Part shown: positions 3-63,780 of the stretch, piece after piece | How positions within the stretch are numbered: the first letter of the stretch is position 1 | How the letters are laid out: every line of letters begins with the position of its first letter | NCBI RefSeq assembly: GCF_964194025.1 | Contig: NC_134474.1 | Span: 19,034,001-19,098,000 of the forward strand | Length of the DNA stretch: 64,000 nucleotides | Direction: 5' to 3' | Origin: Convolutriloba macropyga | Lineage: Eukaryota | Translations under genes and position numbers: made by a program | Notes under the pieces: model-generated | Database searches by the model: none | Told to the model about the DNA's origin: nothing | What the model saw: the letters and a program-made list of their open reading frames with translations, nothing else

Positions 3-3000
3 ATTCCAAACGAAATCTTTGAAAAAGACAGTGAAGTAATATTAACATCCTCTTTAAGTTAAGTTGCTGAAAATAACATTCTCTACATCTATGTCCTGAA
101 CATTACTGACCACCCAATTACCATAAATAAAGGCGAAGAAATAGCCAAATTTTCATTCTTAACATCAGACCAAGCTGAAAAGTTGTTAGAAGTAGATCCT
201 CAATTAATTAATGTGGCAAAAATGAGCGAAAATTATTTAACAGAAATAAATCAACTAATTCAAGTTACAGACACCCCAAAAAGAAAGGCTCAATCAGCGA
301 AACCAGCACCAAAATATGAAAAACTATGGTTCCCAACGCCTGAAACGTGCCCAGATCCGACAAACTTGTCGCCCTTGCAGAGAGATATCTATGAGCAACT
401 GCTAAAACTGCAAGAAATGGAGAAATTAGATCCAAAGGGTAATAATCAGGATAAAATAACATTTTTGAGCAAGTTTCCGTGGGAAAAATCAGCCCTTAAT
501 GATGAGCAAAAAGCAGTAGTAGGTGAACTACTAGTCGAATTCAGTGATATTTTTGCGAAACACAGATTTGACGTTGGATATAACACAGATTTGAAACTAA
601 AGTTAACTCCAGAAAGAAGCATACCAATTTACGAACAAGGCCCTCCAACGCCCGACCATTTGAGAAATGATTTACAAGTAGAGCTCGCACTAATGCATTA
701 TTACGGACTGATAACAACTTTGTCTCAATCAAGATATAGTAGTCCACTTTTCGCTCAAAGAAAGAATTCAGGAAGACTCAGACTATTAATTGACTTGAGA
801 AAAGTAAACCACTTGTTGAAAAATGACTACGTGAATACCAATTTCCCGATTTCCAATATGAGTGACGCAATAAATTACTTTGCCGGGAAAAAATTGTTCA
901 CAAAACTTGACTGTTCTCAAGCATATCACTGTGTGCAAATGGCAGACGATGTATCAGTGCAACTGCTAGCATTTAACTTTGCTTCGAGAACTTATGCCTA
1001 TAAATGTCTTGCACAAGGATTGAATAAGTCAGTAACAGGATTCAGTTCCTTTATTAGACATTACTTGGACCCATGTTTAGCATCAGGAAACTGTACCCAG
1101 TTTATGGATGATATTGGAAATGCAGTAACAAATTTTGAACAATTGGTACCCTCTTTACGAGAAATTTTTACGTGTATACGTCAATCTGGATTAAAATTGT
1201 CACCCGAAAAGTGCGAAATAGCAACTGACACAATGAAATTTCTTGGAAACAACATCAGTGCAGAAGGAATTTCACCGGAAAAAACGAAAATAACTAAATT
1301 TTTAGATAAATTTAAAATGCCAAAGACAACGAAACAAGTAAAACGATTAATCGGCTTCACGCAATTCTTCCGAAATTACATACCTAACTTAGGTGAAAAA
1401 CTAATGTCATTTTACAAGCTCCTGAAGAAGGATGCAGTAATAGAAACCACAGAAGAACATGTAAAGGCATTAGAAGTAATAAAGAAAGATTTAATGGAAG
1501 CAACAAATGTAACATTGCGATTGCCAAAACCAGGCCTACAGTATGTAATTCTTTGCGATGCTAGTTACTACGGTGCAGGTTTTGTACTAATGGTGGAAGA
1601 CTACGTAAACGAAACAGGAAAGAAAGAAAAGAAAACATACGCTCCCGTATCGTTTGAATCGCATTTGTTTAATGCTACGCAATTAAAGTTCTCAATTTAT
1701 TACAAAGAGTTCCTAGCCTTGTACTATGCGCTGGACTACTTTTCACACTACATTTGGGGATCAAGTAAACAAGTAATTATACTCACTGACAACAAAAGCC
1801 TTACACAATTCTTTCAGTCAAAAGTAATACCGCCATCACTTTGGAACTGTTTAGACAGAATACTTTCCTTTAACATAGTAACTGCTCACATTCCTGAACG
1901 CGCTAATTACGCAGCCGTTTTTCTCTCGCGAATGGAGAATGACAAATCAGCAACAATGTCTTTAAAGTTAGCAGACAGAATTCCAGTTAAAGAAATAGAA
2001 ATTGACACAGAAGCACAAAACCCTGATGTAGAACTAAATGTGTTATTTGATACTGAAGGCCTCGGTGACGAAATAAACGAAGACGAAGTTAACTTTCTTA
2101 AAAAACTAGGAGTTTATGAGGATTACAAAAAGCGACAAAATAATAATCCAATTACAGAAATCCAAGGGCTATTAAAACTTAAACGAAAACACGAAATAAA
2201 TTCAATTGAGTACCCAAATCCATTAGATGAGTTCCCAGACCTTACAGACAACTTAATTAGCCTTAACTTAGCAGATGAGCAGCAAAAAGATGCAGATATT
2301 AGAATAGTAATAAGCTGGATTCAACAAAACAATCAACAACCAGACTTAAAGTATGCTACAACTAACTGAAAAAAGTATTACAAACATTTAAACAGATTAA
2401 TTCTTGAAGGGAATGTCTTATACCGGAATTTTTATGATGATACTGGAAAAGTACTTCATAAACAATTCTGTGTACCTAAGCATTTGTGGAAAGAGACTAT
2501 ATACAGACTCCATAATTCACAAACAGCAGGACATTTAGGCATTAAAGCAACAATTCAGGAATTCAGAAAGCGATTTTATTATCCAGGCTTCACTGAACAT
2601 TTCATTAGCTTCATCAAAAACTGCCTCACTTGTCTTCAATTGAACAGAGTACCGAAAAGCCACATCACACCGAAACTGCAACCAGTCAGTTCACTACAAT
2701 CATATCCAGGAGATATGCTCCAAATTGATTTAGTAGGCCCCCTAAAGTCATCGCAATATAAGTATGTTTTGAGTGCAATAGATGTTTTCACAAAGTACCT
2801 ATTCGCAGTTCCATTAACAAATGGATATGCTGACACAGTAGCCCGAGAACTAGTAAAGGTGTTCTTCCAACACAGCTACATTCCCCAAACGATGCTTAGT
2901 GACTTAGGAACCAATTTTACTTCTGAATTAATGTCAGAATTAGCAAGTTTATTAGAAGTAAAGCTAAAACATGCCTCACTAAAGCACCCTCAGACTATCG

Positions 3001-5012
3001 GAGCAGTAGAACGATCTCACGGACCACTGAAACGAATTCTGAAACTTAATACAGAAGAACAATGGAAAGACTGGCATAAATATGTTCCTCTTGCAACCTT
3101 TATCCATAATACTTCATATCATTCAGCGACAAATTGTGGTCCTTCAACTCTATTCCATGGCAGAGAACCCATAAAACCCCTTGACATACGGTTCTCCAGA
3201 AAAGTAATGGATGCAGTAGCAGTAAATTCCGATTTTGTAAATGAACTGCAAGATGCCATGATGCAAAAGTTTGGAGAAAACAAAGAAAAATTAACAACCG
3301 CATACTTGAAGTACAAAAAGTATTATGATCAAAAAGCATCAGCAAAACCGATTCTGGAGAAATCATTCTGTTTACTTTTAAACCCTAAGCTATTAGAGCA
3401 ATCAACAGTAATAGCTTCCCAAGTTCAGAAATGGCTACCGCTATATAAAGTGGAAAAAGTCCTTACTGATTCTAATTACATCATTCGAAAAGTAAATACG
3501 AATTACACCCAATGTGTTCATCGAAACAGATTGAAACCAATCCAACCAAGTGAAACTCCTGAAGACCTCGAAGTCATCAATCCTGTAAACTTTCATCCTG
3601 ATCCGTCGAGAAGACAACACATGGAACCTGACCTATTTGATAAACATATCCCAGAATTAATCAATGAGCAAGAAACAGAGATACAACAATCCAAGAAAGT
3701 GAAACAAGATCCAGTCAGAGTGACCATAAATGTTCCCCTAGGTGGACCACTAGCAGGACCAGCAGTAGCAGCACCTCCAGCAGCCCCACCGGCCCCACCA
3801 AGGGTAGTAGCACCAGCAGTTAGACCACGAACTGCCCCAGTCCACCTTCCAGTATTTGATTCCTCAAGTTCAGACGAAGCAATCCCAAATTTATTTGATG
3901 AAAATAGCAGTTCAGATGAAAATTTAGCTGACCTAAACCTGGACGCAGAACAAATTGCCCGAATACCAGTTAATCCGTTAATTGCTGACGAAATTAGACA
4001 GCAAGAACCAGAAGTTCGTGTTCCTCTTGTATCATCCTCATCAGACGATGAAATGTTTCTACCATTTCAACAGCCACAACCATCAATAGTACCATTCGAT
4101 ATTGAATCGCCTCCAGAAACGCACGAAGAACAATTTGCTTTAACTGATAGAAAAATAAGAGCCAGACCTTATAACCCAAAACGAAAACCAGAGAAAAGTT
4201 CATTCAAATCAACAGACTACCAACAGCGGAAAAATGTACGCGGATTTAAACGTGACAGAGAAATAATGTTGCATAAAGAAGATAGAACAAACCCTTACCT
4301 AACCAACCGAGTTAGAAGATCAGGCAGTCCTAGACCAAAAAATGCACGTGCCAGACTAGAACAAGAAGAAAAACGCGAAGCAATAAAAGCATCAGCACAA
4401 GCAGCACAACAGTCAACTACCCCAAGTAGAGAGACAAAATTAGATCAAGTAAGAGCTAGCATAGCAAAATATTCAGGGAAAAAGCCCAGCAGTTCAGCAA
4501 ACAAACCAGTAACCAGATCTCAAACAAAAAACTCTTCACCAGGCTCTTCAAATCAAAACTTAAATCACTTTAGTCAAGAAATAAATGCAACTTATCTAAG
4601 TTCACCAACGGATATCTTATACTCTCCACACTCTTTTGCACACTGTATATCAGCAGACCTTGCAATGGCAAAGGGATTAGCCAGACAAGTCAAAAGCTGG
4701 TACCCAGCAGCCCCAAGTGCAATTAGACTTAGATATCCACCTGCTATCGGCTCAGTTTTAATTTACTTCGACCCCATTTCTGAACGTTACATCTTCAGTT
4801 TAGTTACAAAATTCAGACACTACCACAAACCCACTTACGAATCTGTATAAGCAAGTCTTTATGAACTGAGAGAAATAGTAATAGATGCAGAAATTACACA
4901 CTTAAGTCTTCCAAAACTCGCTAGTGGCTATGATAAATTGGATTTTAATATCATTTTTGAGCTTATATGTCAAGTCTTCGACCCTCTACCTATAACCATC
5001 TATATCCATTAG
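3..5012 (+). pseudogene. pol: pol polyprotein (RT, RNase H, integrase, disordered linker, macrodomain) in one frame broken by three premature stops
   Basis: ORFs 183-2369 and 2484-4850 share a frame; in-frame stops at TAA 60-62, TGA 2367-2369 and TAA 4848-4850; natural end TAG 5010-5012. RT motifs RLLIDLRKVN, LDCSQAYH, LAQGL, FMDD (1101-1112). RNase H motifs CDAS, KEFLA, TDNKSL. Integrase H-x6-H...CLTC, IDL, SDLG-x35-E, and a GPY/F-like KWLPLYKV...VHRNRLKP. Confidence 0.95.
4590..5012 (+). other. TARG1/OARD1 (Poa1p-like) macrodomain at the pol C-terminus, split by TAA 4848-4850
   Basis: Translation FAHCISADLAMAKGLARQVK...YIFSLVTKFRHYHKPTYESV*ASL...ITHLSLPKLASGYDKLDF...ITIYIH is colinear with OARD1 motifs LAHCISED.RMG.GIA, YYLITK...HKPTY, LSMPRIGCGLDRL and ITVY. 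Confidence 0.87.
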
Positions 5013-5099
5013 CACGTACAGACCCAGTACAGTCCAGTATTACCCTCCATTAGCCCCAGAAGCCCAACAAGCCTAAGCAACTTAGCCTTAAAGCCCAAA

Positions 5100-8000
5100 A
5101 ATCGCCAAAAATTCGAAAATTTTCGACCTCAAAATCCAGTTATTTTGATATATCTCCAAAACTACTTGTCCGAACCTGGATTAACCTATTGTTCTGAAAA
5201 GCCCTCATCCAGTAGAAGCGATTCCAGCTATAATTGACCCCTCTCGACCCGTTCTAGGTACCCAAAACTTAGCCTAAAATTGACCTTTCCGAAAATCCTA
5301 GGTTCACTTCAGAAAAATAGTCATAAAATTGTGAAAAATGCCCCGATCACCCCAAACTTTTGCGCTGCAGCATTTTTCAAGCCGAGGAACCGACCTGCAA
5401 ATTTTGAATTGATTTGGAGAACTTTAAAAATTGAGTGACGCTGGAGCCCTCAATTTTTGACACTTTTCGAATCCGCTCGAATTCAATGATAACTCCCACA
5501 AAAAACCCCCAATTGACCCATCTTATAGCCCTAGATCATCCTACTGCTCACGCTTGACATCCCAGTACCCAAAAATCCTGTCAAAAATCATTAAAAGTTG
5601 AGTTATGACAAAAATACCGAAACCTATCAAAGTGCGTTAAAATTGATTAAAATGTAGTGTAAATTATATCCCAAAAACATGCCAAAAACTGTCCCAAATG
5701 CCTCCAGCAGCTACCCCCAGCTGCCACCCTCATGGTACAACCTCAAACAACCGTTAAAACCAAATATTTCCAAGTATATGTTGAAAAATGACGAAAAAAC
5801 GAAAATTGCGCTTCTGCTTCAATCCTCCGCTTCAAAAATTTTGTCATTTTATTCTCCACCTGACCCGATAAAAGCCACCTATACCCCCTACAACCCTAGT
5901 GCAACCCACTAGCTTTGTAGCACCATAAAAACCAGTCCCAGCTCATCCCAGTATCAACCATGAAGACTTAACCCAAATAACTCTCAAAACGCCACAATTT
6001 TGTCAGAAAAAATCCAGTTATTTCCCACTAGAGTCAAAAATATTAACATCTGACAAAAATTAACCATACCATCAGCACGCCCATATCTATAGCTCTCAGA
6101 ATATGCACTCCCAGCCCCCTAGTGCCAATATAAGCTGAGAAAAGACTGCCAAAGTAACGAAAGTCACAAAAAATCGAGTGAAATTTCCGAAAAAAGTGAT
6201 CAAACATGCATCTTAATACCCGAATATGGCCAATTTTATTATTAATTCAGTTAGCCCCACTCATGAGCAGTCCAACCATAGCAATATCAATCATTCTGAA
6301 CAAGTTTTTTATAGCCTCATAGCCAATAACCTATCCCCTATCTGAGCCTTTTCAAAAAACCCAGGTTCACTACAGCAAAAACGTTATAACTCGTGAAAAA
6401 ATAGTTGAAACTGCCCAAATTTTTGCGCTGCAGGGTTTTTTGAGCCGATAAAGCGGTTCACCAATTTTGAGCTCAATCGGGGCAATTTAAAAATTGAGTG
6501 ACGCTGGGCCCCTCAATTTTGGAGACTTTTTGAAAATTCACGCACATGTTCATAAAATCCAAAATATTGATTGAAAATCCAATATTATTAGCTTAAAACA
6601 TCCGAATGCTCAAGCTCTACACGCTCATTTTAAAAATATTGAAAATTTTTAAGTAAAATGTTGAAATAATAGCAAAAAACTGAAGCCTACCAAACTCTTC
6701 TCAAATTCGTCAAAACAGAGCCAAATTTAGAATATAAAAATAGTATCAAATAGCCGAATTATGAGCCCATATCCAATATTCAGTCTCCCTAGTAGTTACC
6801 CAAGCCCAATAAACCCACACAACTGCCAGAAATTCATAAATGTTGAAAAAAGTGAAAAAAATCGAAAATTGCAGATATTTTACAAAATTTTGTCCGAAAT
6901 TCTAAAGTGAAAAACTCAATATATTATTGTCAAATAATGCATTAAACTACACCAATAGCTGCCACCAACATAGTACTCACTAGTATGACCCACAATTACT
7001 GTCAAAAATCAATTATCTTCAATCTATGTCAACTTATGTACCAAACTTGACGCTTCATAAGTAAAAATTCAGTACATTTCACAGAAAAACTGGTATAAAA
7101 CCTAAGTTAATCAACTCCAAACCTACCAAATGCTACCTCTGATATTCACAGATATCAGTAACAACAGCTAGCACCTGATTTAGGCCACTAGAGAATCACC
7201 AGACCGACACATGTCTCGAAGAAGCTCAATTAGTGGAAAAATCATGCTTGAAAATTCGCATTTTGGACCCAAAAATCAACGTTATGACCCGATAAATAGC
7301 TTCAAACCCTATAATTCAGTAACATACATTAGTACCAAGCACAGAAAGTACCATTTTAACCATTCAATACCGATAATGTATGAACAGTGACGACTTATTC
7401 AGACCGAAATTTCATGATCCAAAAATAGCCAGGTTCAGATCACGAAAACAATCATAACTTTGCGAAAAATGCTTAAATTGCGCCAAATTTTTGCGCTGCA
7501 GGGTTTTTTGAGCCCCTGAAACGATCTACCAATTTTGAGCCCAATCGGAGCAATTTAAAAATTGAGTGACGCTGGAGCCCTCAATTTTTCGCATTTTTCG
7601 TTTTTTCAGACATCAGTAAAAAAGTTGACCAAAAAGTTTCCAAAAACCTGAATTTTTTGCATAGTGATTCCCCACCGATGTCTAATGAGTGGGCCAAGCC
7701 AAAAAATTTGCCCAAAGTTCAACAAAAATTGAAAAATTCACATATTTGCCACACTAGCCCTGATGCGGAAAAATGACCAAAATTACGAAAAAATTACATG
7801 TGAAAATTAGTACCAAATACTCTTCCAAACCAGTCCAAATTACACACAGGTGCTGCTAACAACCAGGACAAGTATCTAGAACCATTAAAACCAGTCTATG
7901 ATCAATAATTGACAAGTAAATTAAAGGTAATGCCCAAAAATCAAAAAAGTCGTTATGTCACCAAAATTTCACTTTCACAAATATGTCATTATAAAGTCAC

Positions 8001-8100
8001 ACACTGCAATAAAAATGTTACCACATGCTCACACACTTCACAGCTGCTAGTTCAAACAGTCTAAACCAATTAACAAAGCTACAATTGACAAATAATAAGT
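5100..8100. repeat. About three diverged ~1.06-kb tandem units, each with a conserved ~160-bp core ending in a 33-nt hairpin
   Basis: Cores GGTTCA...TTTTGCGCTGCAG...AAAAATTGAGTGACGCTGG(AG/GC)CCCTCAATTTT at about 5301-5458, 6364-6521 and 7432-7589 (hairpin offsets 1063 and 1068). Flanks of copies 1 and 2 also align at offset about 1062 (5537/6599, 5776/6838). Confidence 0.8.
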
Positions 8101-8159
8101 AAAAACTCACCTATAAATGAAACTAAACTACATGATGGATATAATTGCACCGACACTAG

Positions 8160-9644
8160 TCAATTCTCATCGGCGCTATCCTCAGCTACGGTACCACAAC
8201 CACTAGTACAATGACCGGACTGACCCCTTGTCCTAGTAGAACGAGTCACGTACCGCTCAGCATCGTCCAACCTGTTTAAATGTCAATATAATACACAAAA
8301 AGCCTCAAAATTATATGAAAAACACGATAAATCTTCACAAAAACAGTTAAATACTCACTTTGGAAAGTCTACGATTGGCTCACAATGGTACCGATACTCA
8401 TTGTCGATGAATTTCCCGATGCACTGGATCAGTACAGCAGGAGCGGTGGTTTGAGCATTGATAGAATGCCTGTAACACACCCAGCCGCCCCCCATTTCCT
8501 CAGTATACTGCCAATAAATATTGACGTTGCATCCCAGGAAAGAAGCCATGCCGACAAACTAATTAACAAAACCTCAAAGAGTACCTACCTACACATGCAC
8601 ATATCAAAATTAACAGTAATTACAATAAAACTTTACCCAGAACTCGGCCAACGACCCATTATCTTCACTCTCAGCAATCTCATACTCCGACACAAAGTAC
8701 CCTAACTGGTCCTTTACAAGCTCAGAGAATCCAGGCGAACGCATCTTGGCCACAATAGCCAAGCGTAGAGCGCGAACGTTATGCTTGGGAACCTTCTTGT
8801 CTGCAACAAACCAAACAAATGTGAATTAAAGTAATAAACTTAGTAAAAATTGCGACAAAACACAACAAATACCTGACTTCCGACCAGTTAAAGAGCAGTA
8901 GTACAGAGCACTGAGAGCACACAGACCACCAACTTCGGCCCTCACACCAGCCGCACCGAGCCATTTTGGAGTTTTGAATGACACTATGTCCACATGCTCA
9001 GCATAAATGTCATTGTAAAACTCGTACCCCAATTCGGCACACACATTTGCACGAAGATTTGTGCAGTGCACCTCTTTGCCGAACATCTTCTTCACGAAAC
9101 ATGGCACACGCTCACGATTAGATCTAAACAATAAGCATACACCACTTCACAACTAATAAAATACTACAACTACTACACAAACTAAAGAAAAACAAATAAA
9201 AATATAAATAACTATTATAAATATATGCAATTACCTTTCAACAGCGGCCTGCAATCCTCCCATTGACCGTGGAAAGAAGAACCCAGCAGCTTTCAGGCGT
9301 TCGACTTGTGACCTCACACGAGTAATGTGCTTTGCAGAAGCACTAAACCCAACATGAAGCGAAGCCAACTCCTGAGACACCATCTGCTGAGTTGGAATTT
9401 CCTTCTCCTGAACTTGCATCTCGCTGCCCACCTTCACTTCCACTTTGTACATCAACACCTCCCGATGTACAGCCAATTCTGATGTTCCCACGTTCTTTGT
9501 CCCCAGTACCATATGTTCTGCTTTGTCCCGATAAGCTCGTCGCTCCTCAGATGACCGAACAAATGATGGATACATCCATTCAGACTGAGACAACGACTTG
9601 CTTCGCAAGAAAGTCAGAAAATCCTCATACTGGGCAACATCCAT
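8160..9644 (-). CDS. Antisense 5-exon accessory gene, 378 aa, C-terminal half OTU-like cysteine protease (putative deubiquitinase); exons 9644-9235, 9123-8873, 8800-8637, 8558-8359, 8271-8160
   Basis: Four GT-AG introns (111, 72, 78, 87 nt) with T-rich acceptors and matching phases (2,1,0,2) join the exons into one stop-free 1137-nt frame. OTU-like spacing: EVGGLCALSAL...LTG (Cys 8921-8919), ALRLAIVAKM, MASFLGCNVNIY...GWVCY, YHCEP (His 8387-8385). The intron 1 acceptor could instead give an exon start at 9144 (same frame). Confidence 0.75.
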
Positions 9645-10161
9645 GATTCACAATAACTATCTGAAAGTTTCAAAATTGAGTCAAACTAGTTATTAAGCGA
9701 GCAGAAAACTAAAGTGTTAAGTCAAAAATGAACAATCACAGGAATGAAAACACACAAACAGAACAAACTACGCAATAACTGCCAAGGACATTTAAATACC
9801 ATGCTATAATGACCGCTAATAGTTAATAACACATGCCGCAAAACACACAACAACGTTTTGAAGACACAATTACACCCTTCACTAGCATTCACTTATTTAC
9901 TACGCCTCTCTAATTCTTCCTTTTGTCCCCTACTTATATCCTCAACCCCCCCCCCCCCCCACAAAACAAGTCTTGATATATTAATTACTACCATATTACT
10001 AGCACCATGTACGAAGTATATTAGTAGCACCAGTCAATTTTACATGTAAAACTACAATATTACAGTCAGTCCCAATAGTCCTTACACAGTCATATTGATA
10101 TTACTATTACACAATATTACAACTATTAAAATAGTTAAATAAAATAAAAATAAATAATAAG

Positions 10162-10566
10162 TCACACTGAATCTTCCTCGACAGCCTCCCCTGACCTCCC
10201 CACTTCCCTCCTCCTCCTCCTTCGATTTGCCCACACTCCCAACAATCCAGATACTAATGATAATAATAAAAAGAATACTAATATAATAATAATCCACCAC
10301 TCAGTCCCACCCCCACTCCCATTATCAATAACTATATCATCTACTGCTGTCATATTGCACTTTGGATGTTTCAATCTTGACCAGTGAACAGCGTTCCTTC
10401 CAACAAACCTGGTCCCATTCACACAGCACCCAATAATTATGGCAGAAACAGTGATATTAAAGCACATGGTGCAATATTGTGGGCAAAATAATCTGAAAAA
10501 CTCGAAAAAAACATGTAAAGACTGCATAATTCGACCCCCCCAACCACTACCCCCATCATCACACAC
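10162..10566 (-). CDS. Antisense ORF or terminal exon for a small single-pass membrane glycoprotein; 5' end unresolved
   Basis: Cys-rich segment with four N-X-S/T sequons (NIT, NGT, NMT, NGS), then a 24-aa hydrophobic helix WWIIIILVFFLLLSLVSGLLGVWA followed by NRRRRRR. A strong acceptor TTTTTCAG ends at 10493. Confidence 0.5.
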   Translation of the reverse strand: MCDDGGSGWGGRIMQSLHVFFEFFRLFCPQYCTMCFNITVSAIIIGCCVNGTRFVGRNAVHWSRLKHPKCNMTAVDDIVIDNGSGGGTEWWIIIILVFFLLLSLVSGLLGVWANRRRRRREVGRSGEAVEEDSV

Positions 10567-10852
10567 CCATCATTCAACCAAATAACCACACTTCAACATG
10601 TTTAAACACCATATTCAGTAGTAATATCAATAAATACACACATCAGCACACATCACCTAAAAGTAAAGTACACCTGAAATAAACAAACATCACATAAACA
10701 AGTACCATATTGAGAAAACTAGATCTAGAAGCCCGAGTAAAAGTAAATAAATGAGCAAATAAACACCGGAAGACCAAATAGAGCCAGTTGAAACACTCAG
10801 AAGAGCCACATCAGTAGAAGATTGTCCTGAAACATAGTCGATATATTGAAAT

Positions 10853-13765
10853 ATGAAAATGTTACTCACAATTGTGTTGAATCTCTTACTTTTCGGCCCC
10901 ACTTTTAAAACCCCGAATAATACAGAAGCAGCTCTGGATAAAGGCATCATCTTCCATAAAGAAGGAAAGATTCTGATTACCGAAAAGTTCATAAATGTGG
11001 AATTTTTAGTACCGTTTCCTCGCTATAATTTCACTATCAGACAACAAGTAGAGACTCTACTTAATGAACTCTCCAAAAAGTGGATCACGCAATCAGAGTT
11101 TTGCAACTTGACAGACAGCACTACATATTGGAATCAAACAGACGCCTTCAATGTTGATTGGCTTTACACAAGGATACTCAATGAAACAATAGAAGCCGAA
11201 ATTGAAGTCCTTAAATTACGCAACGAGACTGAAAAACTCCTTACCAGAGTCGAAGAAGACCCTCACAATCGACAAAAACGAGCCGCCCCGCTTGCAATCG
11301 CAGCCGCAGTCGCTGGAATTGGACTTTTTGGTCCAGGAATCGCAATGAGTAGCGGAGGATGCGGTGGAATTACAGGAATCTTCGGATCTTGTCAGCGAAC
11401 GTCCCAAAATGCTGAGAACATCGACAGATTAGCCAACAGTTTCAACAGCCTCAATGACTATGTAATGGAAATTGGCGCACAAACTGATGAGAAATTCTTC
11501 CTAGTTGCTGACGAACTTGCAAAGGTTTACAAAGTTCAAAACGAAATGCAAGAAAACCAGAACAGAAACTGGAAACTAGTAGAGGAACAATTTGCAATTG
11601 TAGACCATAATCTGAATGCACTAGCCACCTGTATGGAAATTCAATTATCACAGCAACAATTGAACTTTAACTTTGATACAGCAGCCTCATTACTTCTTAC
11701 TCTTTATGCAGATATTAAAAGTTACAGAGCAGCCTTATATTCTTTTCGAATTAATGTTATAAATGCCATTCCTACTTTGCTTGACAAACGTCTTCCAATC
11801 TCTTTAGTGCCTCGTAAATCTTTGATAAAGATCCTTGATTCAGTCCATGATAGCCAAAAGAACGCCCCAGATCGTCTAACTTTGGCAATACCCATGACTG
11901 ACATACTTTCGTACTACGATGCGAAATTAGTACAAGAGATTTCGACAGTTGAAGACGGACTTTTACTGACATTAGCCATTCCCCTAGCCTCTAGCCAGAC
12001 AGTGTTCGAAGTTTATCGTGCAATAGTAATCCCTATGCCTCAGAAGGACTCCGTAGATGCCTTACGATATGTAATAGAGGGAGAGTACTTAGCAATCTCC
12101 GAAGGACAGATGGAAACCACAGTACTGACGAAAACTCAGTATGACAACTGTCTTGGATCGCCACGATACCGAATCTGCCATGAGACAATGGAAACTAGTA
12201 GAGGAACAATTTGCAATTGTAGACCATAATCTGAATGCACTAGCCACCTGTATGGAAATTCAATTATCACAGCAACAATTGAACTTTAACTTTGATACAG
12301 CAGCCTCATTACTTCTTACTCTTTATGCAGATATTAAAAGTTACAGAGCAGCCTTATATTCTTTTCGAATTAATGTTATAAATGCCATTCCTACTTTGCT
12401 TGACAAACGTCTTCCAATCTCTTTAGTGCCTCGTAAATCTTTGATAAAGATCCTTGATTCAGTCCATGATAGCCAAAAGAACGCCCCAGATCGTCTAACT
12501 TTGGCAATACCCATGACTGACATACTTTCGTACTACGATGCGAAATTAGTACAAGAGATTTCGACAGTTGAAGACGGACTTTTACTGACATTAGCCATTC
12601 CCCTAGCCTCTAGCCAGACAGTGTTCGAAGTTTATCGTGCAATAGTAATCCCTATGCCTCAGAAGGACTCCGTAAATGCCTTACGATATGTAATAGAGGG
12701 AGAGTACTTAGCAATCTCCGAAGGACAGATGGAAACCACAGTACTGACGAAAACTCAGTATGACAACTGTCTTGGATCGCCACGATACCGAATCTGCCAT
12801 GAGACAATGGAAACCCACCTTGGATTCTCCTCGTGTCTAGCAACCTCAAGTTCCATCACACAATCTCAGCATTGAAAGTATGTGATACAGAGAAGGTTGT
12901 GTTACCCAACCCTGAACGAGCACAGAACCTTGGATACGGAATTTGGCTCCTAACATCAGCTTAAAGTGATTATACCCTTAGTGAGATTGGTACGGATGAA
13001 AATGGCCGACACATCAATGTTCCTCACAAAGGTTGTAACATCTGTTTAATCACATTAAAATGTGGACATACAATGTTCAGTGACAACATTAAGGTTCGAG
13101 CTGATTTACAAAGTTGTCAGTACCTTCCAGCAACCAGAATTAATGTTAAATTACCAGATCCACTTGCACACTTAATTGACTCAGTACCTAACATAAACGA
13201 CCTTCCAAAATATGATTCCAGTACTGAAGCAAACCTCGATTTATTGAAGAATGTTATAACTGAATTTATTTACTCGAATAGAAAGTTATCAACAGAGTCA
13301 CTAGATGCTATAGCAAAGCCAATTACCACTGAAATGAAGTTATTTAAACCAGCACTAATTGACAAACTTGAATCTTACGTTCCGATCAAACTTTCTCTCT
13401 CGTTAACAATCATTGTCTTTATCGGAAATCTAGCCCTACATATTCTCTTCATGTTCTTATACCATAAAGTAGCCTTTGTACGACGAATGGTACCGAATTT
13501 CATGAAGCTTAACGGAACCAATGTACCGCTAAACCCAGTAGTTTCCGTACCCAAACATCTGAAAGCAGATGTAGTCACAACTCTAGCCAAACAACTCAAG
13601 CAACCGCCAACAGTCATTTCCCCAGAAGAACTTGGAACCCTCAAACGACAACGACGAAATTCCATGCCTGCAACTTCTACCATATCACTCAATACCATGG
13701 ACCGATTTAACACAGACGATGAACTGGACCACCAAGCTCAGCCCCGAGATGAAAGTATTCTTTAA
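10853..13765 (+). pseudogene. env: env, class I F-type fusion glycoprotein (baculovirus-F/paramyxovirus-F-like architecture), disrupted
   Basis: Signal peptide MKMLLTIVLNLLLFG; furin site RQKR (11270-11281) followed by fusion peptide AAPLAIAAAVAGIGLFGPGIAM; heptad region; Cys-rich CLGSPRYRIC...SSCL...GCNICLITLKCG; TM LSLSLTIIVFIGNLALHILFMFLY; cytoplasmic tail. Lesions are a 619-bp duplication, a frameshift at about 12845 and TAA 12962-12964. Confidence 0.9.
11570..12814 (+). repeat. 619-bp direct tandem duplication inside env
   Basis: 11570-12188 is repeated at 12189-12807. TGGAAAC occurs at 11570, 12189 and 12808. One difference seen (G12056 vs A12675). Confidence 0.95.
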
Positions 13766-14320: not shown

Positions 14321-14332
14321 AAAGTCGGGTAG
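14321..14332 (+). promoter_or_regulatory. Candidate polypurine tract
   Basis: AAAGTCGGGTAG directly precedes TGTCACG. It is purine-rich but imperfect. Confidence 0.4.
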
Positions 14333-15197
14333 TGTCACGCCCCTATTTCGTTCCTTATAGTTTCGTGATGATATTCCTTAAATATCCATAAATAAGTGCT
14401 ATAAATTAGTTCATATTCAGTTAGTTTCAAGGCCACGTATAGCCAGTATTTCCATCTAGGCCTGTAACCCCGAATTTGTTTATGTTTATGAAAAACAACC
14501 GCAGATTGACAGGTTTTACTAGCAAACACTTCAAGTGCCTAAAAGCCTCAATATTTACTTTTTTGAGTTTCTTGATGATAAATTCACATAATCAGTAAAT
14601 AACTTCATGAGAGATTATGTACTTGGTGAAGTAATTATTCTGATAAAGTAGGTGCTAATACGGAATTGTATATGTACTGAACAAACACCAAGAGACGTAC
14701 AAAAGCCGGAAATCGCCCTACTTGAAATTCAGTAAATATTTGCGAAGGACCAATACAACTCAAGGCACAATCTTGCGGAACCCACTATCACCAGAACACC
14801 GGAGAACCAGCCTAAAAATCAGTTGCCTATCAACTCATAAAACTTGATAAAACTTGAGAAACTTCTTGTTAAAATTATTAAACAATTCTTGCTAAAATAA
14901 TTAAAGATTGAACTGGAAATTCTCTTGAAAACCGCCAAGTTTGATAAACTAAGTTACAGATGAAATATCGACTAACTTAACACTAAAATGCAAGGCAAAC
15001 TAGTGGATATATCACGCATCTGAACCGCTCAATAAAAGGCTATTATTAGCTAATTTTATTCAAAATATATCTGCTAAAAATCGCACTGTGAAACACCAAA
15101 ATAAGTCCTTGTAAAATGCCAATTATTCAAGTAAATTACTTCTAATATAAACCTCAATAGCACCACGAGGAACACTATTAAAAATCAGTGCGTAACA
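14333..15197 (+). repeat. Candidate 3' LTR (865 bp)
   Basis: Starts TGTCACGCCC and ends GTGCGTAACA (8/10 inverted match, TG...CA), with AATAAA at 15031. The 5' LTR is outside the window, so the call cannot be confirmed by pairing. Confidence 0.7.
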
Positions 15198-16687
15198 TGA
15201 GGTAATATGCTTTTTTCATGACTAGAATACAATGCATTCCTGTATTTTTTTACAGCTTCTTTGTCTTTTTTTCTCTCGTTTTCAAAATGTATAATAAAGG
15301 GCCGTGTACACCATCCGGCAACAATGGACGTAGGTCTGAAAATAGGGGATGATGAGTAGCACTTAGCCGGATGCTGTACTCCAAGCTGTTCCCCTCCAGA
15401 CAGTGTAAAGACGGCCCAGTCACAAAAATAACTAACAAGTGGAGAGGATAATGAAGGAATAATATATCATGACCAAAATAATGAAGGAATAATGCATCGT
15501 GACCAAAATGGAAGTATTTATTAGAAAAGAAATTATCAATTAGGATCAGATTTGGAAAAATTTGAGTGTCTTGAATAAGTATAAGATTGAATTGACAACT
15601 CAAATTGTTTTTGTTGCTATCTATATTCTACAGGACTGAAGTGCATTTCGTATCTATTCGACAATCTACCGAATGTTATATTTGGTATCAGGACTAATTT
15701 GGCGTTTAATTAATATTCTGCTTTAACTTTGCTGTAAGACAACTTTGGGTCTTTGCAGTAATAGAAAAGTGAGTAAAGACATTTAACTCTTAAATTTGAA
15801 TACACTTTGACAAATTAAGTTGATCGTGTTGATATAATCGACCTTATTGCTCATTTTTGAGGTGAGTGTTCAGTTGCTAGGATAAATTAACATGATTTCA
15901 AAACGGCCACTATTTGATCAGGTTCTGTCAGCGAAGAGAGGAAACTGGAAGACTGCGAGAATGGAACAACGAAGGAATATTTTGATAAAAAGTTTGCAGT
16001 ATCGAACACTTTTGGTGGCGAAACTTTTGATAGCTACTGTTACACAGATGACCTATACATTGTAAAGTGTTGTCTTGAAGATTGGATGGGTGATAGTGCA
16101 TCTGTCATTACCAGCTACACGATCAATGAGCTGTGAGTTTATTGCTGTTGCTTCTGTGTAATTTGCGTGCGTAACAGCTATCGAAATTGCATGATGCGCT
16201 TGAATGCTAAAACGTTTCTGGCATGATTAACTTAAAGGGCGAAGAGCAGAGTACTGAAATACGTATTAGTATTGATTAATTACTATCCGACGAAGATTGC
16301 AGCAATTCCTTAAGTACTAAATTTCTCTTTAAAGCAATTTTTTCTGGATTGATTCCTTAACTGACCAAAATGACTTTTCGTCCTGAAAAACGAGATGAGC
16401 TGGTTTAAGTCTCAATGCATTAAATCCCTATGCAACTCTCTTAGAGATTAAGCGAGCTCTTAGTGTACGGTTCATAAAAACTTCTCTGATTAAAAAAATT
16501 TACAAAAAAATGATTAAGGTACACAATATAGACAGGCATTCCCCTAAATGAGCTGATGAGAAGAAAAAGGAGTATTCAAAGACATAGTTACCTCGGGTTG
16601 AACGGCAAAATTTTCATATTGCTTCAAAATGTTAGCTTCTTTAAAAACAGTTCTAATGTAAAAGCTATAATGAGTCAAATTGAACAA

Positions 16688-32627: not shown

Positions 32628-35600
32628 TTGATGCCGCACTTCAGCTGCTGTTATGTCGCGTAATCTTATCATCTATTATCCTCATTAACGCTGAGTTATA
32701 GTAGAAATTTTTTTATCATAAATGACCTAACAAGCACTTTTTAGGAAATTATTGTTAATCGCTCTCAAAAGCACTTTGTAGCAAATATATTAATCCTGTC
32801 TGTCTTTTATGCAATTTTTTGTTTGACCGATTTTTCGTCTGACCCATTTGACTTTAGTTTTCAGAAACGGAAAAAGAGGTAGCGCCCAGTGGGCATTAAG
32901 TTCTGTTAAAGCCTTTCAGTCCGCTAGTCTTCAAGTATGCGATTCACAGAAAATGTTTTGGAGACTTATACTTATGGCGTGAAGGGCGGTTCTTTGATCC
33001 CACACCCCCATCCATCGCCTTCACATCAGTCCCGCAATCCACTTTTGCACCCTCGCTTTGGTGCACCCCCACTGCACTCACCTTACGCCCCTTCAGTTAA
33101 GTTAAAGCTGGCCTCACTAAAACGTTGCTAGCTACTGACGAAGCCAACCGATTGAGAGCAATTCGCCCGACGTTAGTCGGTTATGTTTTAAGATGTTAAC
33201 TGTTTTTTTTGGGATTCTCTTTATATCAGTTCTTTGTGCTGTGACTTATTCTCATTATGGACAGGTCTAATTGTTTGTCTTGTCAGACTCTTTTTGATGA
33301 ACTTGAAGGTTTTTATTCATATCGAACTCCTTAAACAACTTTGATCCTACTCGCTTGAAAAAAGTTTTTTTTTGATCTTGCCGCTTTTTTGTCATTTTGT
33401 TTTGTTATTTAGTCTCATCAATGGTGGGTCCCACGGGGCCATTATTAGGTCTTTTTTTTAGTTAACCCTAATGCTTTCTTTTTGACACAGAAGGTTTTAA
33501 CAACTTTTATGCGACTTTTCAAAAATTGTTGGCGATTTTTTTAATTTTGCGAATTCTTTTTGGTTGCTTTTATTGTTACTTCACTTAGGATCACCAACGA
33601 GATTCTCATTGGCTCTACATCAGGTTGTATTTGAGCCCTCTGTGATGAATCTCATTTAAATCTGGTGAAATATTTCTACTTATAGCTAACATTTTCCACG
33701 ATTTTGACATGTTCTTATAGCTGCGAAGCTGTAAGCTGAGCGTAGCTATATTGCGGTGCTCTTGGTTTTTTACGACTCGAAGAGGAGTATTGGTTTTCTT
33801 GATTTTTTTTTTTAAAGGAAGCATATTTGTTCACGCGGCATTTTGACCTAAAAGCGAAACTGAGAAAAGCTGTCTCGGTGAACAGATTTTCGCTAAGCGG
33901 GAGAAGTTTTTTTGATCATGCGCTTCGTTTAGTGAATGACTTTTTGACTTTGAAAAGTAGTTTTTGACTGAATGGCACATATAGATAACCGTTTTTAGCC
34001 GGTTTTTGGACTAAATGGCCCAATTTTTTTGCTTTTAATTTGGTTTCATATAGCAATAAAGTTTATTCGATACTATATTGAAATGTCAACCTCTGAAATT
34101 GATACCACAGTGTTTTGCAGAGCCTGAGAATGCGTTTCAAATTGAAAATTGGCACATATTTCTTAATTTTATAGTTAATTCGTTAATTCTTGCCTTTTTT
34201 TCTATTAATTTCTTCGTTTTTGGATCTTTTAACCGTCTTTTTTTTTTATCAAAAATCAGTTAATATGGCAACTTCTCTTTGGTAATTCATATACTCAACG
34301 CCTCTTTCTACATCGATGTAATTTTGTTTTATAAAATTTACATATGCTAATCCGATTTTGGTAGTTTTTTCCGATTTTCGTCAGTTTTTTGTTTGTTTTT
34401 TTTTGTTGTAATTGCTAGAAATAGTCTTTTTGTGCAACATGAGGGACTTTAATTTCCTTTCAATAAAAATTCAATCATTTTTTTTGGCGTTAGGTTTTTG
34501 AAAAACATTTAAAACTTTCATAAATGCTGGCTTAAAAGTGTTTTGACCATTTTTTTGCAAAATGTTTCAATTTTTCGTATTTTTGAGTTCTTCTTTTTCC
34601 TATTTTTTGCTCTCTTCAGGAGAATAAATCTTTGTATTGGATGATTAGTTATCTTTTATGTCTTGAAAGCTGAACAATGAAATGTATTCGTTTTTCTTGA
34701 ATTTTTTATTGATTTAAAAATCTAGAATGTTTTTGTTACGGTGTTCTTCACTTTGTGCCCATATTCTTCACATTCAAGTTATTATCTTTCTAACTTTGTC
34801 ATTGCACCTACATTTATTTTCGGTATATTGATTTTTTCAGTTGTTAAAAATGTATGATTTTGGTCAGAAAATGCTTTTTAGATTTTCGTCATTTCTTTGG
34901 TTTGCATTTGATTGCATTCAACATAAGGCAGTACTGAGAGTTTGATAGCAAGCCTTTTCCGCAATTTCCACATAAGACTATTAACTGCAACTTTGTTCCG
35001 GCCTTGGTATTAAATCAAAAGATTTTTTTGCCTTTGAATATTCTTCTGCTGCTTATGTCTTTTCTATGATCAATTTAATTTTTGAATTAGAATGAAATCA
35101 TGTTGTTTAGCATTTGTACAACAAGGAACAAGTGTGTGTTGTTTTTTGTCTTAATCGCAGTGATTAGAAGTGTAATTATAGTTGTTTTCTGATTCTTAAA
35201 TTTGAGTTTTCTTTTTTGAAAAGATTTTACTTAGTTTTATTTAACTTAGATTTTTATCTGCCGTTTGCTTTCGCAATCTTTTTCAGATTAAAATCATGAA
35301 TTATTTGAGGGCAGTTGATAGCCTTGTCAGCTTTTTCAGTCTATCACTTTCTTGACCACTTTAATTATTTCGGTTTTTTAACGTTACCAAACGTTTTCAA
35401 TGATATAAAATTTTGCTGCATTTTGTTTCTCTTGGTGACAGTGGTATAAGTTTCACCAATTTTTAGAGCAGACCTGGAGAGGTAGTGAGTTAATGGTTTA
35501 ATACAAAGAGTTGTGGCTTCCGCTGCAATTACAGTTTTGTTAGTGGAATTTTGATGCTTCGAGTCGCTTCCGGAATTCTTCCGGCTATGTTTTTTGTTTC

Positions 35601-38600
35601 GTCGTCTGACGCTCTTTTTTCGTTTTACATTTGTTCACACAGCAAAGCTGAAAAAGTCAAATTTTCTGAATGACTTCTTCCTCTCACTAACGGCATTTGC
35701 GCGCGTGACGTTATTTCTCACTCGCTTTAGCGAAAGTTTTTAGGTTATTTGCGTGATTAGATTTTGATCATACGTGACTTACCACACTCACTAAAATGAT
35801 TTTAGCACTTTAAAGCTTAAGTTTAATTTGAATTTGTTTAAGGTCAAAGGAAATCATATGTGCAGTAAAGGTCCCTAATAAGAGGCTTCTGTGGGATGAA
35901 TTTTAACAGGCTTTATTAATTTATCGCTGAATGTTTTTTAGCCTAGTTTTTTGAGCGGCGTCATTTTTTTTCAATTTAGATCTGTATCTGTTTCTATCTA
36001 TTATATGGCACGCATGACTATTCTTTCGCAGCTATTTCGGCAATCTGCCGGCTAAGTTAAAACTATTGTTGATTTTTTGAGATTTTTGCCTTTTCGAATT
36101 GTTTATATTGTCGTTATGTCGCTCATTCATTTTTGAGAAGTCTCATTTGCTTTATAATTAGGAATTAATGAGTCCACTTACTGGTTTCAGATCACTGCTA
36201 ATATTGACTTTGACTTTTTCGGCATCCAAGATAGTTTCATCCCTTGTGGTCCGTTCAGACAGACGTTATCACATGCTTTTTTGCGCATGTAGCCTTAAAC
36301 TTTTGATTAAATCCAATTAGTTATTCTTTGCATGAAATTCTTTAGCCAAAAGATCAGCTACTTCCAACTTAAATTCTTTGCCAACATTTGTTTTCGAGAG
36401 TTGCTGTAATTTTAGTCGTTTTTCGAGAGTTGCTGTAATTTTAGTCGCTGCCTACATTTGTTGCTATTTTTGTTTCCCAAAGGTTTTCCTTAATTTTGTC
36501 ATATGTTTTCTATTTTTGGATAGTGCGATAGATGTCCGAGAGTTCAAGTTTTAGTTGCTTCTTTCAACGACTTTGATGCCACTTGTTTTCACAGACTTCT
36601 TAAAAACTCACAAATATTTGTTGTTGTCCTTTTATGTCTCTCAGTGGTTTCCTACAAAGTTGGCATTTGCCGCTTTAACTCCCATTGTGCAATAACCTTT
36701 CGAATTTGTTGTTGTTGGACATGAAAACTTCCATAACACTTCCATAAGAACTCCCACAAAAATGTTTTTGCTTTTAATTTCCTGTCCTTGTTCTGTTTCT
36801 TTCGTGGGCTTCTTTGTATAAGATTTGAACCGTCTTGGAACGGTTCTTTAAAGGAGTGTGATTGTATTGTCTTCATTTTGTACATTCCTTTGAATTGTGA
36901 TTCATGTTTTTTATTCTTCGTCTTCGTTGTTTCGTTTCGAAAAAGTCTAAAAAATTTTGAATTACTTCATCTCACGGCGCGTGCGCACGTGACATCGTTT
37001 CTCATTCTCTCTAGAGAAAAATTTAGGTCACTTGTGTGAAATAATTTAAGGTCAAAGGAACTCATATATGTAATAAAGGTACTCTTTAAAAAGGCTTCTG
37101 CGGAGTGAATTTTATCAAGCGTTATTCATTTATCGCTGAATGTTTTTCACATAGCTCTTTGAGCGGCGTCGATAAATTTGGTAGCTATTCCGGCAATCTG
37201 ACGGCTATGTTAGTAAATGATCTCACGAGGTGGAATCATTAGCATTCCAAAACTTTCCGATGAACCAAGTGGTCGAAAAATCTTAAAATCCTTTCTGTTT
37301 CTGAAAGCAAAATCCCACTTGTTACAAGATGCTGGCGAGATTTTGAATCTGCTGATACATATGAAATTACATGTTGAGAACCTTTGTTTTTATCGCCGTA
37401 GTAATTATTGGTCCAACTTGTTTGTGAATGTTTTATCCGTAAAACAGCTTCCCAGTAAACTTGTCTTACTGGTCTTGTTAGCTCAAATTGAAGTTCTTTA
37501 TCGAACTAAAAAGCGGCGAGCAGATGTTGAAATTGAATATAGTATTACAGAATTAATGGTTTATATTGTTGTTATGTCGCTCATTCATTTTTGAGAAGTC
37601 TCATTTGCTTTCTAATTAGGAATTAATGAGTCCACTTACTGGTTTCAGATCACTGCTAATATTGACTTTGACTTTTTCGGCATCCAAGATGGTTTCATCC
37701 CTTGTGGTCCGTTCAGACAGACGTTATCACATGCTTTTTTGCGCTTGTAGCCTTAAACTTTTGAGTAAATCCAATTAGTTATTCTTTGCATGAAATTTTT
37801 TTAGCCAAAAGATCAGCTACTTCCAACTTAAATTCTTTGCCAAAATTTGTTTTCGAGAGTTGCTGTAGTTTTTGTCGCTGCCTACATTTGTTGCTATTTT
37901 TGTTTCCCAAATGTTTTCCTTAATTTTGTCATATGTTATCTATTTTTGGATAGTGCGATAGATGTCCGAGAGTTTTAGCCGTTTTTTGGACTAAATGGCC
38001 CAATTTTTTTGCTTTTAATTTGGTTTCATATAGAAATAAAGTTTATTCGATACTATATTGAAATGTCAACCTCTGAAATTGATACCACAGTGTTTTGCAG
38101 AGCCTGAGAATGCGTTTCAAATTTAAAATTGGCACATATTTCTTGATTTTATAGTTGATTAGTTAATTCTTGGCTTTTTTTCTATTAATTTCTTCGTTTT
38201 TGGATCTTTTAACCGTCTTTTTTTATCAAAAATCAGTTAATATGGCAACTTCTCTTTGATAATTCATATACTCATCGCCTCTTTCTACCTCGATGTAATT
38301 TTGTTTTATAAAATTTACATATGCTAATCCGATTTTGGTAGTTTTTTCCGATTTTCGTCAGTTTTTTGTTTGTTTTTTTTTTGGTTGTAATTGCTAGAAA
38401 TAGTCTTTTTGTGCAACATGAGGGACTTTAATTTCCTTTCAATAAAAATTCAATCATTTTTTTTGGCGTTAGGTTTTTGAAAAACATTTAAAACTTTCAT
38501 AAATGCTGGCTTAAAAGTGTTTTGACCATTTTTTTTGCAAAATGTTTCAATTTTTCGTATTTTTGAGTTCTTCTTTTTCCTATTTTTTGTTCTCTTCAGG

Positions 38601-62800: not shown

Positions 62801-63358
62801 GGAAGAACAGGCTGCGCAATTTCTTTTTTGGAGCCACCAGAAGAAATAAGGTCAGTCATGTATTATTGTAATCAACTAAGTAGCCTTGCCTTACTGACTA
62901 TGTTGAGTGCCCTGTTGGTAAAATGCCATTTTCAAATCGCGTTAATGATTATTACCGCATTTTTGTTGTCACCATCGCGAAGTTATCAAACTCTGAGGCT
63001 AAGCTGAATTGTTGAATACTTTACAGAGGGCAATAACAACCGGTTTGTGAAGTTCTTCTCAACTATCGTTGCAATTACAATTGTTGCAAAACTTACGCCT
63101 CTGTGTTCCTGATTAGACTTTTTTTGGCCACTTCATCTGATTTTCCGCCATCTTCATATAGCAACTTGGCGCGAAAAAAAGCCAAGTCATCTGCACGGGA
63201 CAGAATTTAATGCAATCGCACTAAAAGCGTATCACACCTACACATAGTTAACCTAAAATTGAATGAAACATTGTGGTTTTTATTTGATAGGAAATATTTG
63301 GTCGGATTAAAATGAAAGCCGGATGAAATCAGACGAGGAAATTAATTGATCAATAAGG
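50813..63358. repeat. 6.27-kb near-perfect tandem duplication (50813-57082 and 57090-63358)
   Basis: ORF-track entries repeat at offset 6277/6276. Only about three differences were noticed. A 7-nt junction insert lies at 57083-57089. Confidence 0.95.
53617..56574 (+). CDS. Three putative host exons (53617-53695, 55931-56043, 56395-56574) encoding Ser/Thr/Tyr-rich sequence; second copy at 59894-62850
   Basis: AG/GT-bounded with phases 0-1, 1-0 and 0-0: PPTSVGEVQ...SSSAN / VGSGDYTSSGYD...TTNE / GLAENIHFP...RRNK. Phase-compatible with the TM exon ending at 48284. Confidence 0.45.
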
Positions 63359-63780
63359 GTTACATCTGGATAAATAATTTGAAGGTTGAATTTTCGATTG
63401 TTGGGGTTTCGCGCTTATGCGATTTGGGTCAGTTCTTTGCTTAGAATTTGATTTCTCAGCATAATGTATTGCAACGAAAAAATGCAGATGACAAGCCAAG
63501 GTTGTTGCCTGCGCTTGGGAAAGCAATCGAAAATAAAACTTAGGCAGAGTTATAAAGAGGCATCGGATACCCATAACTTGGAAAAAGGAAAATGAAAAAA
63601 AAAGAAAAATTTCACTATCCGATTGAGCAATTTTAAGTCCCTTGCTTAGGATCGTCATATTTAGTTTAGTGGTTTCTATTTATGGTTCTGAAAATGAAGA
63701 AAATCCTATTTTAGGGTTTACTGCAAATGTGTTAACTGGTGCTTACATACGATGTTATAATGATTAATTACGCTCGAACG

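Follow-up and report, generated by a model that had tools for sequence, protein, structure and literature searches.

TARG1 removes ADP-ribose from acidic residues, phosphate ends and bases (PMC7050489; PMC9411070; bioRxiv 10.64898/2026.03.31.715305), using a catalytic pair formed by Lys84 and Asp125 (PMC9411070; bioRxiv 10.64898/2026.03.31.715305). Uracil-linked ADP-ribose was removed by TARG1 alone among four hydrolases assayed, and TARG1 binds RNA via a basic surface in which three basic residues are implicated (both bioRxiv 10.64898/2026.03.31.715305). DarG, a bacterial macrodomain of the same class, strips base-linked ADP-ribose from DNA (PMC9411070). A link between ADP-ribosylation and retrotransposon silencing has been published for L1, where SIRT6 modifies KAP1 (PMC4695847). 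Retroelements are also known to capture enzymes: dUTPases occupy variable pol positions in retroviruses and in bdelloid and basidiomycete LTR retrotransposons (PMC5408684).

LTR retroelements with a macrodomain are already known: according to a review (PMC4977317, citing Basta et al. 2009), macro domain proteins are encoded by some fish epsilon-like endogenous retroviruses (ERVs). None of the papers listed in our full-text literature searches describes a TARG1-type domain in a Ty3/gypsy element. The word 'macro' is absent from the main text of a survey of env-bearing elements (PMC13524379), and the places viewed in its supplement are species names. The consulted part of a further preprint (bioRxiv 10.1101/2021.11.30.470311) describes chromo and PHD fusions, not TARG1-type domains. 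Automatic annotations already label some of the proteins matched below as macro or O-acetyl-ADP-ribose deacetylase.

The domain described here lies in a 64,000-nucleotide stretch (the window) of the Convolutriloba macropyga genome, which was searched as an assembly of 1.18 Gb in which 15 contigs measure 49-89 Mb. The window opens inside the pol gene of a Ty3/gypsy element that bears an env and spans about 19 kb; all of its features are given on the forward strand. Pfam and sibling loci place protease, reverse transcriptase (RT), RNase H and integrase after gag in the order of the Ty3/gypsy type. The pol spacer, RT, RNase H and bridge occupy 63-2369 (Pfam RVT_1 E 2.5e-21, RT_RNaseH E 2.6e-17), and in the window copy this first pol piece is closed by an in-frame TGA at 2367-2369. 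The integrase-frame ORF (2370-4850) begins with the integrase itself (2370-3560), comprising an HHCC zinc finger, a core and a C-terminal domain (Pfam Integrase_H2C2, rve, Integrase_p58_C). This is followed by a linker of 343 codons (3561-4589) and by the macrodomain with the pol stop (4590-5012), that is, 140 codons at 4590-5009 and a TAG at 5010-5012. A spacer of 5.8 kb that belongs to the element and contains three diverged repeats at intervals of about 1.07 kb (5013-10849) leads to an env-like gene (10850-13765). This gene is in three pieces in the window copy and has a basic furin-type site, a hydrophobic fusion-peptide-like stretch and a late hydrophobic segment. A purine tract, the 3' LTR (14333-15197, TG...CA) and a 5-bp target-site duplication (15198-15202) complete the element at 14321-15202.

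The 5' LTR lies 4.1 kb upstream of the window (L031:5851-6715), as do gag and the protease (locus L031), and a TGG-starting primer-binding-like site is found downstream of it. The two LTRs are 865 bp long, 99.5% identical and bounded by the 5-bp duplication; such duplications were present at 11/11 insertions for which both flanks were available. Six sibling pairs of loci showed the same layout. Their gag reaches 424 codons, the pol that overlaps it has about 1930, and after a long spacer comes an env-like ORF that reaches 765 codons and has a furin-type site. Their pol contains protease, RT, RNase H, integrase, linker and macrodomain, and overlaps gag in a different frame. The element may count as an 'errantivirus', a name applied operationally to env-bearing Ty3/gypsy elements (PMC13524379); it has a third ORF and a furin-type site, and its Baculo_F match (E 0.0014) is below cut-off. 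The window copy is dead, with interruptions in gag, pol and env, and since it is broken at 2367-2369 and upstream it is unable to make the macrodomain. Its env additionally contains a 619-bp tandem duplication at 11564-12801 (99% identical).

Two other observations concern the surrounding DNA. The pol-env spacer (5013-10849) diverges less among copies (p 0.066 over 5013-6500 and mostly 0.02-0.07 beyond) than the synonymous sites of pol (0.13-0.27) and has no 150-codon ORF shared by the six siblings. Its low divergence suggests a constrained RNA or DNA function. Further along, window positions 33990-45830 and 50813-63400 hold complex near-identical repeats (spacings of 1430, 1459 and 3231 bp) and a 6.3-kb duplication, which are unrelated to the macrodomain.

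An earlier note on this DNA had named the domain as TARG1/OARD1-type from the letters alone. With an X at the broken codon, 4590-5009 matched human TARG1/C6orf130 over nearly its full length in a PDB search (E 2.2e-15 to 4.8e-15), with DarG following at E 0.002-0.003, and it also matched PHROG 335 (E 4.6e-19). Pfam gave no match to the domain in the window at E 0.1; we ascribe this blank to a limit of sensitivity and do not read it as a refutation. AlphaFold2, supplied with an 86-row alignment of TARG1-like homologues, produced a model with pLDDT 95.7 and pTM 0.90. When this model was submitted to Foldseek, ranks 1-8 were occupied by TARG1 (TM 0.83-0.89) and ranks 9-11 by DarG. The lysine of the VTK motif (4809-4811) and the aspartate of GYD (4932-4934) aligned with those of TARG1 ITK and GLD, as had been claimed, making them the equivalents of the nucleophile Lys84 and of Asp125, and the dyad is spaced by 41 residues in both proteins. 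Sequence and predicted structure together confirm a TARG1/OARD1-type macrodomain with the catalytic Lys/Asp pair, for which catalysis is predicted. Gly29 and Gly113 are invariant across seven families, and the neighbouring glycines of the phosphate-binding loops are altered compared with TARG1. Two of the three basic residues implicated in RNA binding by TARG1 have basic counterparts (Arg76 and Lys116), in a patch that is variable in the other families.

In the window copy the domain is interrupted at its codon 87 by a premature TAA (4848-4850). Reading through this stop, as the note had proposed, gave 140 codons in the frame of the integrase that end at the pol stop. The genome contained at least 150 matches to the domain at 80-100% identity among 925 candidates; 115 of the best 150 had no stop inside the domain, and 10 of these 150 were within open frames of at least 1800 codons. 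Among copies picked by their macrodomain (53 loci, of which 5 duplicates were dropped), position 4848 was a sense codon in all 47 other distinct copies and the terminal pol stop was common to 47/48. To avoid picking on the domain itself, we used a second, overlapping set consisting of the 30 best integrase matches. The domain was present in 30/30 of these (one partial), 4848 was a sense codon in 29/29 siblings, two copies had a stop elsewhere, and the catalytic Lys and Asp were each kept in 29/30, the exception for Asp being a gap. Pairwise pN/pS for the domain in this set was 0.17 (codon bootstrap 0.11-0.26); integrase gave 0.06-0.08 and the linker 0.23, the pairs not being independent. A previous value of 0.11 was set aside and superseded, because the copies had been chosen on the domain itself and the value was biased low. 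The macrodomain is under purifying selection in this gypsy family, and among the copies examined only the window's dead copy has the stop at 4848.

Two family copies (L119 and L120) have internal tandem triplications with a 1.9-kb unit covering window positions 4005-5970, including the macrodomain. That contig C14 gave no matches is accounted for by its length of 353 kb.

The Pro/Ser/Glu/Arg-rich linker is, from its composition, probably disordered. It is under coding constraint (the pN/pS of 0.23) despite poor conservation between families, where its mean identity is 23%. Near its end, about 11 residues upstream of the macrodomain, is the sequence LNHF (4560-4571), which conforms to a motif [ILVM][NHQ]x[ILVFMA]. 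In 14/15 related rows this motif preceded the domain by at most 25 residues (mostly 8-12), whereas 7/120 other linker windows contained it; it was kept in 30/30 integrase-picked copies. Over the same distance before the domain it was present in 8/40 unrelated TARG1-like proteins and in 2/17 other retroelement-linked ones. Across 18 aligned pols the motif fell at 15 shared sites. Four of these are junctions with poorly conserved flanks, namely the protease end, the region after RNase H, the integrase start and the region before the macrodomain; the others lie inside domains or spacers, and the motif is loose. Protease sites in Ty1 have mainly Val or Ile at P2 and P2' and hydrophilic residues at P1 and P1', for example TIN*NV (PMC6952103), a comparison that is an analogy only because Ty1 is a copia element. 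Motif and analogy point to a likely candidate protease cut between the integrase linker and the macrodomain.

Pol also ends with the domain in four or more other families of the same genome (RT about 80% and integrase about 70% identical), and in one of them the catalytic Asp is replaced by His. Mean identity across seven families was 39% for the domain, 78% for RT and, as given above, far lower for the linker. Twenty domain positions are invariant across these families, including Ser21, Asp23, Gly29, Thr73, Lys74, Pro108, Gly113 and Asp115. When 68 pol relatives were collected via their integrase, eight had the domain with both catalytic residues and one had a truncated domain. Twelve had a degenerate fold of full length in which one or both catalytic residues were lost (hhalign probability 96-99.8% for nine and 70% for three, compared with at most 11% for ten control tails). 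Ten had tails of 306-487 residues in which no macrodomain was found, and the remaining 37 end too early or were unscored. Neither a Pfam macrodomain nor a chromodomain (PF00385) was listed for any of the 68. A quick-search integrase tree of 51 rows put the intact domains of this lineage into a single subclade; degenerate ones surrounded it and also occupied the deepest branch. The simplest reading of this pattern would be an old capture followed by repeated decay and loss, which counts against a strictly required enzyme. Since 12 relatives have lost catalytic residues and 10 have long tails without the domain, this lineage can dispense with catalysis.

The position of the domain within pol proved to be free. 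Searching for longer proteins with a profile, we obtained 88 matches, of which 76 were new and 35 of these had a pol landmark. Of the 35, 14 place it downstream of integrase, 11 have it between RNase H and integrase, and in the other 10 it separates protease from RT; the catalytic Lys was read in 34/35 and the Asp in 33/35. They include proteins from the sawfly Athalia rosae and the beetle Carabus. ERV-type proteins of fish (Danio aesculapii, Triplophysa, Puntigrus and Misgurnus) carry their TARG1-type domain downstream of integrase, retain its Lys and Asp, and have the retroviral RNase H PF00075. In one protein (P0282) integrase, chromodomain and macrodomain follow in a row. An earlier search had given beetle elements (Aromia, Molorchus), P0076, one domain before RT and one upstream of the protease (P0118). 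In four beetle-type gypsy proteins (P0067, P0071, P0082 and P0168, three of them named from Aromia moschata) a CCCH zinc finger follows the post-integrase macrodomain. In P0025 the macrodomain is followed by a stretch with a cysteine motif, which we take to be OTU-like, and then by RT. Outside retroelements, many of the proteins among P0272-P0299 are ATP-dependent DNA ligases bearing a TARG1-type domain, one of them from Tigriopus californicus, and the domain is also fused to XPG, SLOG and NADAR domains.

The same genome has a second gypsy lineage of two families (L128:3983-9676 and L130:3943-9552) in which the domain lies between the protease region and RT with Lys and Asp present. The RT of this lineage is only 23-26% identical to that of the window, making it an unrelated gypsy lineage; families D and E, which had no continuous stretch, were omitted from the RT tree. 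For a 156-row set a quick tree was used, with four rows dropped for short coverage. The L128/L130 domain groups with that of the window lineage without firm support, which hints at a possible exchange of modules between elements. A single clade of all post-integrase domains (16 rows versus 34) was rejected (p-AU 0.003), and we conclude that the post-integrase position was reached more than once. The recurrent use of TARG1-type domains across LTR retroelements is apparently a wider and undescribed pattern.

The earlier note had also suggested capture of the domain from the host's OARD1. An uninterrupted, stand-alone OARD1-like ORF with a basic C-terminal tail is present in the genome (L161:1336-1980, G000 C2), its 1.5-kb flanks gave no retroelement match, and it is probably the host TARG1. 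This gene is 26% identical to the window domain and is not its neighbour in the tree, so that a recent capture is unsupported. Grouping the window domain with host OARD1 was not rejected (p-AU 0.06), nor was grouping with the fish ERV domains (p-AU 0.27).

What might such a domain do for the element? The interpretation we favour, with moderate confidence, is that of a hydrolase carried in the particle, probably cut free, that removes host-placed ADP-ribose from the RNA, cDNA or proteins of the element, in line with the counter to PARP defence that the earlier note had suggested. The macrodomain would be made as part of Gag-Pol, as the overlap of gag and pol in different frames would allow, and Gag-Pol would carry it into the particle. 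There the element protease would free a protein of about 150 residues from the integrase linker. Acting in the particle or the cytoplasm, this protein could remove ADP-ribose placed by PARP-family enzymes on element RNA bases, single-stranded cDNA, cDNA ends and acidic protein residues, which if left in place would hinder reverse transcription or integration. It would resemble the dUTPases of retroviruses, mobile helper enzymes that are indifferent to their location in pol. Counting for a hydrolase are the fold and dyad, the selection, the invariant residues, the free position, the cleavage-like motif, the basic residues and the host's PARPs, for which the genome gave 19 PARP-domain matches. 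Counting against it are the 12 degenerate relatives, the family with His, the altered loop glycines, the looseness of the motif and the variability of the basic patch. The avoidance of chromosome ends by the copies, described below, is a further point that a free enzyme leaves unexplained.

Extended to other elements, the proposal becomes considerably more tentative. TARG1-type macrodomains may be a recurrent, protease-released accessory enzyme of animal LTR retroelements (several Ty3/gypsy lineages and fish ERVs) that clears genomic RNA or single-stranded cDNA of base-linked ADP-ribose. Their presence could then betray an undescribed PARP-based defence of invertebrates against retrotransposons.

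The earlier note had placed the domain where chromoviruses carry a chromodomain and raised the possibility that it guides integration. The fusion after integrase is real and selected. The chromodomain analogy is weak; some 340 low-complexity residues and the cleavage-like motif lie between integrase and the domain. As a tether, the domain would stay on integrase, read ADP-ribosylated chromatin or breaks and thereby bias insertion. Its place after integrase at the pol end, seen in five or more of the families of this genome and in many relatives, is what such a role would call for, and the degenerate versions that retain the fold without catalysis are compatible with it. Copies of the family are also depleted near chromosome ends: the outer fifth of the chromosome halves contained 7/130 family copies, compared with 26 expected and with 29/124 for the family whose domain lies between protease and RT (KS p 3.5e-5). 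This depletion may equally stem from integrase itself, from copy age or from removal by selection. The domain also occurs at three other positions in pol, and once beside a chromodomain (P0282), it is preceded by the cleavage-like motif, and a retained catalytic dyad would be expected to erase the very mark to be held. The eleven target duplications are all different and the flanks share almost no repeat; a target-sequence preference hinted at by two similar sites was gone with 11 insertions. Guided integration is accordingly poorly supported and we consider it unlikely. Because unrelated elements carry the domain at different places, protection from ADP-ribose tags is more likely than the steering of insertion.

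Two further readings appear improbable to a similar extent. In one, the enzyme would help repair and not counter a defence, removing PARP marks at the gapped integration intermediate and so letting host repair run to completion. TARG1 does go to DNA damage and reverses ADP-ribose on the end phosphates of nucleic acids (PMC7050489), and many of our matches join a cellular TARG1-type domain to an ATP-dependent DNA ligase. The host, on the other hand, has its own stand-alone TARG1-like gene, and in pol the domain lies far from integrase as often as behind it. In the other, the domain would bind RNA, scaffold the particle or sense ADP-ribose or PAR, with catalysis being incidental. The 12 relatives that have a full-length fold without an intact dyad, including the deepest branch of the integrase tree, agree with this, as does the binding of RNA by TARG1 via its basic surface (bioRxiv 10.64898/2026.03.31.715305). 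It is opposed by the inclusion of Lys and Asp among only 20 invariant positions in seven families and by their retention in nearly all of the distant retroelement matches (34/35 and 33/35). Finally, that the domain is a captured host exon carried as a neutral passenger without benefit is very improbable: it is lost or degenerate in many sister lineages, but the pN/pS of 0.17 largely refutes this idea, as do the 115 of the best 150 matches that lack a stop in the domain and the repeated retention in unrelated elements.

Returning to the hydrolase, the independent retention of the TARG1 fold and catalytic pair in many retroelement polyproteins would mark ADP-ribosylation as a pressure on reverse-transcribing elements. 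If this is true, a PARP defence of invertebrates would parallel DarT/DarG in bacteria and the viral macrodomains that act against interferon-induced PARPs. These elements also bear on the physiological purpose of base-linked ADP-ribose on animal RNA and DNA. Retroelement macrodomains offer small natural candidate enzymes, with the degenerate relatives as natural controls. They also occupy a blind spot of annotation, since Pfam misses the domain in the window and has no macrodomain entry for any of the 68 pol relatives.

Compared with known systems, the window domain is closest to human TARG1/OARD1/C6orf130 (ALC1-like class; PDB 4J5S, 2L8R), with which it shares the fold (TM 0.83-0.89) at about 30% identity, the motifs HCIS-x-D, the ITK/VTK lysine, KPTY and Gly-x-Asp with its Asp, and the dyad spacing of 41 residues. 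Unlike TARG1 it is a module of a retroelement polyprotein known from sequence and model, and several of its loop glycines are changed (MAKG for MGAG and ASGYD for GCGLD). The DarG antitoxin macrodomain (PDB 5M31, 5M3I) belongs to the same class and has the catalytic Lys, but is only about 20% identical, lacks the Asp and functions in a bacterial toxin-antitoxin setting. The fish epsilon-like ERVs resemble the window element in having a TARG1-type domain with Lys and Asp after integrase, and we infer that the fish proteins matched here are the elements of Basta et al. 2009. They differ in their retroviral RNase H PF00075, whereas the window element is Ty3/gypsy with RT_RNaseH only. The chromodomain of chromoviruses and of some env-bearing Ty3/gypsy elements is likewise an extra domain C-terminal to integrase (PMC13524379), but it is a reader and not an enzyme, and the window domain sits behind a long linker and a cleavage-like motif. 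Pfam detected no chromodomain in the window. The dUTPases, with their unrelated fold and chemistry, offer an analogy of use only, being, like the TARG1-type domain, a captured nucleotide-handling enzyme found at variable positions in pol.
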